Of a DNA stretch of 64,000 nucleotides, positions 51,086 through 53,146 are shown one piece after another. Source of the DNA: Candidatus Heimdallarchaeota archaeon (GTDB lineage: Archaea > Asgardarchaeota > Heimdallarchaeia > Heimdallarchaeales > Heimdallarchaeaceae); contig DXJF01000011.1 of assembly GCA_019057375.1 (NCBI GenBank), positions 1 to 64,000 on the forward strand. Reading direction: 5' to 3'. The notes under the pieces were generated by a model. That model had not been told where the DNA came from, made no database searches, and saw only the letters and a list, made by a program, of their open reading frames with translations. The position numbers were made by a program, and so were the translations under genes. How positions within the stretch are numbered: the stretch's first letter is position 1; each line of letters begins with the position of its first letter.

Positions 51086-53071
51086 ATGAGTTCATACGTC
51101 AAGAAAGTGTCCTCTTCAATGGGTAACAAACAAAATATTAGAAATGTTAGTGTAGTTAGCCATGTAGATCATGGGAAAACTACTCTTTCGGATCATTTGC
51201 TTCAAGCAGGAGGTTTAATATCTAAAACAATGGCTGGAAGTGCTAGAGCTTTAGATTATCTAGAAGAGGAACAAAAAAGAGGCATTACTATAAAAACAGC
51301 AAATATCTCATTTATTTTTGAACAAGAAAATGAACCTTATTTAGTAAACTTAGTAGATACTCCTGGGCACGTAGATTTCTCAGGAATGGTTTCACAAGCA
51401 TTGAGATTGGTTGACGGAGTGATAATTGTTGTTGATGCTGTTGAACAGATAATGGCTCAAACTGAATCAGTAATTAGACAATCAATGAAAGAATATCTAA
51501 GACCAATTCTTTTCATAAATAAAGTTGACAGGTTGGTAAATGAACTTAAATTACCAAAAGAGGAAATCGAAACAAGGATCAACAACATCATTGAAATGGT
51601 AAACGAACTTATTGACCAATATAGCATTAATTCTGACAACAAAGAGTGGAAAGTAAGATTTGATAAAGGTACAGTAATCATAGGATCGGCATTGAATGGT
51701 TGGGCTATCTCATCCTACTCCAAAATGATTCCGCATTTTGATATGATTATTAAACATCATAAAGAAGATAATGTTGAGCAACTAAGAAGCAATTTTCCAA
51801 TTATGGATGCTTTCCTAACATCAATAATAGAAAATGTTCCTAGTCCTAAAGAAGCTCAATTTAAACGAATTCAATATATTACTCAATTTATGGATGAGGG
51901 CTCAAAAAAAGCAATACAGGAATGCAGTGATGCAGGTCCTTTGATTTCATGCCTTGGGAAGCTGCTTTATGAAGATAATAGGGGTATTATTTCAGTTATA
52001 AGAATATTTTCAGGATCAGTAAAATCAGGTTCTACAATACGAAATCGAAGAACTGGAGAAACAACTAGAATTCAACAGGTTTGTATCTATAAAGGTCAAT
52101 CCTTAGTAACAATTGATTCAGTTGGAGCAGGTAATATCGCGGTTATTATTGGTTTAAAGAATGTACAAATTGGAGATACACTTGTAGTTGAAAGTGAAAA
52201 CCCTCCAAATGTACTTTTTAGTCAAATTTTCTATCTACAAGAATCTGTTATTTCCCAAAGAATAGAGCCAAAAAGAGTTTCAGATATTCCAAAACTACAA
52301 AAGAATCTAGAAATTTTGTCTTTAATTAAACCTAATTTTCATAACTCAACAGATGAAAATACTGGTGAAATGAAAATATATGGGATTGGTGAGCTTCAAC
52401 TTGAAATTATCATTGGAGAGATAGAAAAAACTGGTATAGCTGTTGAAGTTTCAAATCCTGAAGTAACTTTAATAGAGCAAATTGAAGAAGAAGTAAGGCT
52501 ACAAAAGAAAGATTATTTGGATTTGCTCAAAATAGAGTTAACTTGTATGTCTTCACAAGAGGATACTAAGGATTGTATATACAGTGATTACAGAGATAAC
52601 TGTTTGAAAGTAGATACTAAAATTACAACAGAAGAGATTCAAGATTTACTTAGAATTGGTTTTCGAAATGCTATTCTACGTGGTCCCCTGAAAGGATATC
52701 CAGTTCGGAAACTTACTTTAATAATTCATGATATTCAAGAATTATCTCCAGATTCGCTTAGATATGAGATAATTGTTCCATTAGTAAGAAACGCTGTTCA
52801 CGAAGCATTACAAAAGGGGAAAATTGGAATTTTTGAACCAATTTATCGCTTCTCAATAAACACTCCTCTTCATTATCTAGGACCTGTTTTGATTGTTATG
52901 CAGAAATTTGGTAGTACTATTGAAGATACAGAACACATCGCATCAAGATCAACTATAGAAGGTGTAATTAGTGTCGAATCTTCTCTTCAAATAGCTTCGG
53001 AGTTAAGAGCAGCTTCCGATGGTTATGCTTTCTGGCAATTTGAGTTTCTTGGATTCAAAAGAAAAAACTAA
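51086..53071 (+). CDS. Elongation factor 2 paralogue lacking the diphthamide histidine (aEF-2p type)
   Basis: SHVDHGKTT, RGITI, DTPGHVDF and NKVD are present. The domain IV loop reads ELSPDSLRYEIIVP in place of the HEDxIHRGPAQ-type motif. Confidence 0.88.
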   Translation: MSSYVKKVSSSMGNKQNIRNVSVVSHVDHGKTTLSDHLLQAGGLISKTMAGSARALDYLEEEQKRGITIKTANISFIFEQENEPYLVNLVDTPGHVDFSGMVSQALRLVDGVIIVVDAVEQIMAQTESVIRQSMKEYLRPILFINKVDRLVNELKLPKEEIETRINNIIEMVNELIDQYSINSDNKEWKVRFDKGTVIIGSALNGWAISSYSKMIPHFDMIIKHHKEDNVEQLRSNFPIMDAFLTSIIENVPSPKEAQFKRIQYITQFMDEGSKKAIQECSDAGPLISCLGKLLYEDNRGIISVIRIFSGSVKSGSTIRNRRTGETTRIQQVCIYKGQSLVTIDSVGAGNIAVIIGLKNVQIGDTLVVESENPPNVLFSQIFYLQESVISQRIEPKRVSDIPKLQKNLEILSLIKPNFHNSTDENTGEMKIYGIGELQLEIIIGEIEKTGIAVEVSNPEVTLIEQIEEEVRLQKKDYLDLLKIELTCMSSQEDTKDCIYSDYRDNCLKVDTKITTEEIQDLLRIGFRNAILRGPLKGYPVRKLTLIIHDIQELSPDSLRYEIIVPLVRNAVHEALQKGKIGIFEPIYRFSINTPLHYLGPVLIVMQKFGSTIEDTEHIASRSTIEGVISVESSLQIASELRAASDGYAFWQFEFLGFKRKN

Positions 53072-53085
53072 CCATGAAGATTTGA

Positions 53086-53146
53086 TGGCTCAGTACTCAA
53101 GATCCTCAACATCTAGTTCAGTCAAGGGCTAGATTCTTCATTGCCA
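53086..53146 (-). ncRNA. Box C/D guide sRNA; predicted target tRNA-Leu(CAA) C34
   Basis: TGGC-A-ATGAAGA(C)-ATCTAGCCCTTGA-CTGA(D')-ACTAGATGT-TGAGGA(C')-TCTTGAGTA-CTGA(D)-GCCA, with a 4-bp terminal stem; 61 nt in an intergenic gap. Confidence 0.8.

Follow-up and report, generated by a model that had tools for sequence, protein, structure and literature searches.

Genomic context and organization of the sRNA

The window, a stretch of 64,000 nucleotides, belongs to contig C12 of an archaeal MAG (G000; 3.47 Mb, 33% G+C, 89% complete). On its minus strand, a predicted box C/D sRNA follows a same-strand amidohydrolase gene, whose stop codon lies 25 nt before it, and is faced by a convergent gene for an EF-2-like GTPase, whose stop codon is 14 nt away; a Cdc6/Orc1 gene adjoins the region. 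The GTPase (51086-53071, plus strand) is an EF-2/EF-G-like protein of 661 aa with all five EF-G domains (Pfam). Typical archaeal EF-2 is longer, and this protein may be an Asgard EF-2 paralogue.

Read directly from 53146 to 53086, the minus strand gives UGGC-A-AUGAAGA-AUCUAGCCCUUGA-CUGA-ACUAGAUGU-UGAGGA-UCUUGAGUA-CUGA-GCCA. All of the boxes and the UGGC/GCCA stem that the sequence-only reading had described are present where it had placed them (Table 1), although its choice of box C' is revised below.

Table 1. Positions of the sRNA and its parts in the window
Feature	Position	Strand	Remarks
Whole box C/D sRNA, 61 nt	53086..53146	-	Direct read; full-length RF00095 match; conservation ends match
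Terminal stem, 5' strand UGGC	53143..53146	-	Pairs with GCCA at 53086-53089
Terminal stem, 3' strand GCCA	53086..53089	-	Stem 100% paired in 15 distinct sequences
Box C, AUGAAGA	53135..53141	-	RUGAUGA variant; position 5 is A/C within the genus, U elsewhere
D' guide, AUCUAGCCCUUGA, 13 nt	53122..53134	-	Bases 3-12 from box D' complement the tag AAGGG(C/U)UAGA
Box D', CUGA	53118..53121	-	Invariant across the genus
Box C', AUGUUGA, homologous frame	53106..53112	-	Degenerate: U for the first A of UGAUGA
Alternative box C', UGAGGA (sequence-only reading)	53103..53108	-	Overlaps the guide; UGAAGA in four genus members
D guide, GGAUCUUGAGUA, 12 nt	53094..53105	-	G53098 is the fifth base 5' of box D, opposite C34
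Box D, CUGA	53090..53093	-	CGGA in two relatives

The Rfam model snoPyro_CD (RF00095) aligned end to end with 53145-53087 at 36.1 bits (E = 4e-6, 351 nt searched), which is below its gathering score of 45; the model was built from Pyrococcus sequences. A default Rfam scan of the window at gathering thresholds returned five tRNAs only. Elsewhere in the same genome, the genes for fibrillarin (C82:24334-24996) and Nop5 (C82:23474-24151) are adjacent. The RF00095 match, the confinement of conservation to the element within the genus, and the recurrence across Archaea of its D-guide/box-D pattern (both described below) together put the sRNA beyond chance. On the strength of its sequence, then, 53146-53086 is a genuine archaeal box C/D sRNA, predicted to yield an RNA of about 61 nt.

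A second element of this kind was observed on another contig (G000:C11:7679-7733, L002). It is a fully canonical box C/D sRNA, with a UUGCC stem, AUGAUGU, CUGA, UGAUGA and CUGA boxes, guides of 11-12 nt, and an RF00095 score of 28.3 bits.

Conservation within the genus and across Archaea

With 121 nt around the element as query, BLAST recovered the sRNA from 21 of 24 congeneric genomes (82-98% identity) and also from one genome of another family; the three congeneric genomes that gave no match are 81-84% complete. The flanks diverge in the alignment while the sRNA is kept, and conservation ends at UGGC...GCCA. Similarly, the matches in G004, G019 and G040 span the sRNA (together with the upstream flank in G019) and little or nothing downstream. 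The terminal stem varies with compensation, as UGGU/ACCA in G040 and in other compensated forms across Archaea among the matches listed.

We also scanned a single genome for each GTDB species with a pattern that joins a loosely defined box C to AUCUUGAGU-N-CUGA-N-CC. There were at least 80 matches; of the 80 listed, about 75 are archaeal and about 5 bacterial, the latter attributed to chance. Among the matches listed are Heimdall-, Thor- and Hermodarchaeota, Bathyarchaeia, Nitrososphaerota and Korarchaeota, as well as Nezha- and Methanomethylicia, Micrarchaeota, DHVE2 and Thermoplasmata. This wide archaeal spread points to an ancient and widespread sRNA family, which, judging by these pattern matches, is far older and wider than the Thermococcales. 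Retention of the boxes in the relatives of G000, in the genus and in homologues across Archaea among the matches listed, bears out the sequence-only reading of the element as a box C/D sRNA. All of the genomes compared are MAGs, and the relatives are statistically non-independent.

These homologues also bear on the register of box C', which had been placed at UGAGGA. In almost all homologues among the matches listed, the distance from a canonical UGAUGA to box D downstream of it is exactly 12 nt, and the spacer between them reads (G/A)GAUCUUGAGUN; G023, G040 and G041 have a canonical (A)UGAUGA, likewise 12 nt upstream of box D. By this homology, box C' of G000 is AUGUUGA (53112-53106), reached by a single A-to-U change, whereas UGAGGA covers the first three guide bases (GGA) and would leave a spacer of 9 nt. 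UGAGGA may nevertheless serve as a shifted C'. The two overlapping candidates, AUGUUGA and UGAGGA (window 53103-53112, minus strand), are offset by 4 nt, and in the genus the canonical A of UGAUGA has disappeared, a GA-containing hexamer downstream being retained; the overlap may represent a box that is shifting register. In the homologous frame the D guide spacer is 12 nt long, and the D' spacer is 13 nt in G000 and 11 nt in G040 and G048.

The D guide is predicted to target the wobble base of tRNA-Leu(CAA)

The sequence-only reading had predicted that the D guide aims at C34 of tRNA-Leu(CAA). The corresponding gene (G000:C47:14590-14701, minus strand), which has a 30-nt intron after position 37, was located through Rfam tRNA matches followed by intron-aware ARAGORN, and was missed when intron mode was off; a search for UACUCAAGA gave 72 matches, all irrelevant to the location of this gene. 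The gene carries ACUCAAGA, and positions 31-41 of the mature tRNA (ACUCAAGAUCC) are the full complement of D-guide bases 2-12 (GGAUCUUGAGU), placing C34 opposite G53098. The predicted target is thereby upheld with the genome's own tRNA, the pairing being extended to 11 bp. The unspliced precursor, ACUCAAG|AUCU, pairs equally well with the D guide except for one G-U, the guide in this case also pairing with intron bases 1-4 (AUCU) that follow G37.

Among the 41 tRNA genes of the genome, tRNA-Leu(CAA) forms both the best D-guide duplex and the strongest combined duplex. The next-best D-guide partners are Leu(UAG) and Leu(UAA), through G-U pairs; with Leu(UAA) the G-U falls at the target base, and with Met there are two mismatches at positions 36-37. 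The segment UCUUGAGU of the D guide is invariant in 23/23 Heimdall homologues, and (A/G)CUCAAGA is kept in all tRNA-Leu(CAA) genes recovered from relatives. Dedicated guides for tRNA-Met or tRNA-Leu(UAA) were found neither in this genome nor in 28 Heimdall genomes. A conserved match to GAUUAUAAGU-CUGA on contig C94 was considered as a separate guide and rejected, being within a coding frame and having no box C; rRNA targets for the D and D' guides were likewise rejected after comparison with the rRNA of the genome.

Cm34 guides for tRNA-Leu(CAA) are textbook archaeal biology. The precedent in Thermococcales to which the sequence-only reading appealed is real: P. abyssi sR47 methylates C34 of tRNA-Leu(CAA) in vitro (PMC3413156, PMC5558902, citing Bortolin 2003 and Nolivos 2005). 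The two sRNAs are alike in having the guide 5' of box D, C34 at position 5 and a 12-nt spacer, and the substrate oligonucleotide for P. abyssi tRNA-Leu contains the same ACUCAAGAUCC as the tRNA of G000 (PMC3413156; PMC5558902). They differ in that sR47 is from Pyrococcus, whereas the present sRNA comes from another phylum (Asgard, Heimdall group) and a mesophile-like genome of 33% G+C, and in that here boxes C and C' are degenerate and the target gene has an intron. From this comparison of guide and target, we identify the sRNA as the Heimdall-group counterpart of Pyrococcus sR47 and as a predicted Cm34 guide for tRNA-Leu(CAA), which would extend a known family to the prokaryotes most closely related to eukaryotes.

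The D' guide is conserved and is not explained by an internal hairpin

The core UCUA.CCCUU of the D' guide is invariant in 19 sequences, making this guide as conserved as the D guide and more conserved than the D'-C' linker. The sequence-only reading had noted that the D' guide can pair internally (AUCUAG/CUAGAU), and had taken this to suggest a single-guide, snoRNA-like sRNA, in which a D' guide folded into a hairpin would have no target. The six-base complementarity does exist, and one pair is doubly changed, from G-C to A-U, in a few genomes. However, the helix is only 84% paired over 19 aligned sequences (15 distinct), two of its six pairs are broken in 6/15 distinct sequences, and no measure exceeded shuffles. 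The helix is also absent from the predicted minimum-free-energy fold (z = -0.36), the GAU of the linker belongs to box C', and the linkers of 3-5 nt in G040, G041 and most other archaea listed make the helix impossible. A conserved guide that, as described below, co-evolves with external partners fits poorly with such sequestration. Thus the complementarity stands as an observation, the hairpin finds no support in the fold, the shuffles or the relatives, and we regard the single-guide architecture as very improbable.

The D' guide complements a tag shared by tRNA introns

The introns of two precursors, pre-tRNA-Met(CAU) and pre-tRNA-Leu(UAA), contain a short tag, AAGGG(C/U)UAGA, whose sequence is complementary to the D' guide. 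The 10-mer AAGGGYTAGA occurs 11 times in the 6.9 Mb represented by both strands of the genome, one occurrence being the sRNA gene itself; three fall within about 500 nt of tRNA intron, against about 0.001 expected. These three intron tags are in Leu(UAA), in a second, truncated copy of Leu(UAA), and in elongator Met(CAU). The Leu(CAA) intron of G000 (UCAUUGGCUAGAU) matches the D' guide at 11/13 positions and carries a tag variant, UUGGCUAGAU, with two mismatches, at guide bases 4-5.

Across the genus, the Met intron was recovered from 21 genomes, and every intron recovered whole has the tag (one was assembled short of it), while the intron outside the tag varies. The Met intron of G041 (Ca. 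Heimdallarchaeum endolithica) also carries it. The Leu(UAA) introns, obtained from 21 genomes of the genus, carry the tag as well, as do many Leu(CAA) introns; among the latter, those of G008, G015 and G022 contain the exact 13-mer UCAAGGGCUAGAU. The tag lies 8-17 nt downstream of the anticodon loop, with intron boundaries taken from ARAGORN and inspection by eye. Only the Met, Leu(UAA) and Leu(CAA) intron families start with AUCU, the sequence that extends the D-guide duplex.

Guide and tag change together

If a single guide must pair with all of the tags in a genome, its sequence should follow theirs, and the pattern at guide base 8 (counted from box D') is the one expected. This base is A in G002, G005, G017, G020 and G023 only; these five genomes lack a tag in Leu(CAA), and all of their tags are GGGUUAG. 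Wherever at least one tag is GGGCUAG (15/15 genomes), the base is G. Two further genomes in which all tags have U keep G at base 8, which still wobble-pairs. The association is significant (Fisher p = 8e-4), in a test made without correction for phylogeny, such that related genomes overstate its independence.

Multi-base compensatory changes were found outside the genus: the guide and tag are AUCUAGCCAAU and AUUGGCUGGAU in G040, CUCUGGCCUUC and AAGGCCAGAG in G048, and ACAGGGCCUUU and AAGGCCCU in G025, and in G041 guide and intron pair over 11 bp. We compared five guides with five Met introns in a 5 x 5 matrix, in which every guide had its highest score with the intron of the lineage it came from; one guide is shared by G000 and G041, and for both of these genomes the G041 intron is best. 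Shuffled guides reached the observed Met-intron score with p <= 0.0065. Covariation in relatives, a check that the sequence-only reading had proposed, was found between the D' guide and the intron tag, among members of the genus and also in four further Heimdall lineages.

The same comparisons weigh against two other accounts of the D' guide. The first is that it targets 23S rRNA at CCAAGGGUUAGUC, where 10 bp including one G-U can form, the best rRNA match in this genome. The site is nearly unchanged in G048, G025 and G040, yet their altered D' guides no longer pair with it and instead match the tRNA-Met introns of their own lineages; we consider an rRNA target scarcely credible. The second account is that the likeness of guide and tag is a functionless relic, either of shared descent or of sequence copied between sRNA and intron, and the middle of the sRNA (CCUUGACUGAACUAGAUGUUGAGGA) does resemble one type of Leu(CAA) intron (CCUUGACUCAAGGGCUAGAUGAGGA). 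A relic would be expected to decay, whereas guide and tag co-change across four families/lineages while the surrounding intron varies, so that this origin, too, seems most improbable.

Taken together, we think it likely that the sRNA is an sR47 counterpart whose D' guide is neither directed at rRNA nor sequestered in a hairpin, and instead pairs with the tag in pre-tRNA introns.

As a separate observation on the rRNA, the 23S match of this genome (G000:C12:79333-82910, outside the window) spans 3578 nt against a model of 2987 positions, an excess that suggests large insertions or expansion segments.

Candidate pairings beyond the Heimdall group

The intron-pairing arrangement was also sought in other archaea. 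In TACK and Euryarchaeota, the pattern CTYAAG..GGGCYAGA returned only the antisense strands of sRNAs and chance matches. When each genome's own D' guide was compared with shuffled guides on 27 pre-tRNA-Leu(UAA) genes, the result was clear for G060, G042 and G052 only. The candidate D' matches, to D-arm introns of pre-tRNA-Leu(UAA), are in one Thermoprotei, one Nitrososphaeria and two Bathyarchaeia genomes, and are suggestive. As the shuffle test is clear in few lineages outside Asgard, we claim docking for the tested Heimdall lineages only.

The pre-tRNA-Leu(UAA) genes L271 (G042, Thermoprotei), L299 (G060), L290 (G052) and L272 (G043) contain non-canonical introns in or beside the D arm or the anticodon stem. 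The D' guide matches in these TACK introns are of 8-9 nt, at or inside the intron: GGGGCUAGA in L271, UGGCUAGAG in L299, GGGCUAAA in L290 and CUGGGCCG in L272.

A model for docking on unspliced precursors

Both arms of the sRNA have conserved complementary partners on the same precursors, with the D partner upstream and the D' partner 8-17 nt downstream, an order that corresponds to a simple antiparallel arrangement for one sRNA. We propose that the sRNP would clamp the unspliced precursor with both arms in this single antiparallel arrangement. The central and outer helices of the bulge-helix-bulge are built, in the precursors of Leu(CAA) and Met, from the D-guide target (positions 32-35) and from the bases adjoining the tag. 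As these bases are shared, sRNP binding and the splice-competent fold should be mutually exclusive, and binding that competes with the bulge-helix-bulge must precede splicing. The sRNP would accordingly be expected to act prior to splicing, provided that the sRNA is expressed and the tRNA methylated, as its boxes and D guide predict.

Would the D' guide itself then direct methylation? It might 2'-O-methylate a G in the intron tag, for example timing splicing or stabilising the intron once it is excised and circularised, and box D' is invariant, with perfect Watson-Crick pairing around the fifth base from it in most members of the genus. On the other hand, guide position 5 does not face the homologous base in different lineages: with the 13-nt spacer of G000 it faces the first G of GGGC, while the 11-nt spacers of G040 and G048 place it opposite a G two positions nearer the C. 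In addition, the Leu(CAA) tag of G000 has its two mismatches at just this point (guide positions 4-5), and box C' is degenerate. Methylation of the tag is consequently unlikely in our judgment, and these three features argue that the D' guide would serve for docking on unspliced precursors and not for directing methylation.

A broader version of the docking model is that one sRNP docks its D' arm on the introns of Met, Leu(UAA) and Leu(CAA) and modifies all three wobble bases before splicing, tolerating G-U pairs and mismatches in the D duplex. We put this forward tentatively, as a possibility somewhat short of an even chance. That the same particle might also modify U34 of Leu(UAA) or C34 of Met is speculative, given the G-U at the target base of the former and the two mismatches at positions 36-37 of the latter. 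If it were true, these archaeal tRNA introns would have a selectable function, as a shared landing pad, and one guide would serve three of the four tRNAs for each of which Pyrococcus requires its own wobble guide.

Comparison with known guide systems

The sRNA itself appears to belong to a known family of Cm34 guides, and intron docking would be the new element. In Haloferax volcanii, guides are reportedly known for Cm34 of elongator pre-tRNA-Met and, within an intron, for pre-tRNA-Trp (work credited to Joardar in 2011 and Clouet-d'Orval in 2001). According to one account, a portion of the intron in pre-tRNA-Met and pre-tRNA-Trp of this organism base-pairs with the guide RNA, the Trp guide being the intron itself, and methylation before splicing is accepted for both precursors (PMC2584109). 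The present sRNA resembles the guides so described in that its pairing includes intron bases, so that its action would precede splicing. Beyond what that account describes (PMC2584109), here a separate D' arm pairs with an internal tag 8-17 nt from the anticodon loop, the tag is common to three pre-tRNAs, and the D guide is perfect only for Leu(CAA).

In Pyrococcus, the wobble bases of Leu(CAA), Leu(UAA), Met and Trp each have their own guide, and the review describing them sums up the second guide of tRNA-directed sRNAs as being without a target (PMC7994747). In the portion of the literature covered, no partner is described for the D' guide of sR47, in contrast to the co-evolving intron partner found here. 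According to a survey of Pyrobaculum, which covered mature tRNAs only, it is rare for a dual-guide sRNA to have two sites on the same tRNA (PMC6009581). The arrangement proposed here is like that of dual-guide archaeal sRNAs with nearby rRNA targets, whose two arms contact one substrate at sites separated by less than 100 nt (PMC6009581, PMC7994747); it differs in involving a pre-tRNA, from which splicing removes the second site. Within the literature searched, which for H. volcanii comprised one account, we found no precedent for a separate D' arm that co-evolves with a shared internal intron tag.

A further parallel comes from eukaryotes. Extra base-pairing outside the methylation duplex is said to raise the efficiency of eukaryotic snoRNPs (a finding credited to van Nues et al. 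in 2011). That accessory pairing adjoins the guide and acts on rRNA, whereas the pairing described here fills the whole D' position and involves tRNA introns. The D' arm co-evolves with a tag that lies in introns, sequence that is lost at splicing, and this hints that the introns are of some use. A functional pairing would be relevant to the question of why introns persist in archaeal tRNA genes, and to the order in which modification and splicing take place.

Variation among the tRNA-Leu genes

Two observations were made on the tRNA-Leu genes themselves. Outside the window, at G000:C47:51690-51850 (L301), is the 5'-truncated copy of tRNA-Leu(UAA), 2.4 kb from the intact gene and on the same strand. 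It spans the anticodon stem, the intron (with the tag AAGGGUUAGA) and the 3' CCA end, with no acceptor or D arm upstream, and could be the remnant of an integration site or a split tRNA half.

Within the genus, the tRNA-Leu(CAA) gene is either intronless, interrupted by a short intron that has no tag, or interrupted by a tag-bearing intron (compare L060-L063, from G012, G002, G005 and G017, with L038-L059). There are also at least two types of anticodon stem, such as ACGGA/UCCGU and UCCGG/CCGGA. This variety points to rapid intron gain, intron loss or gene replacement.
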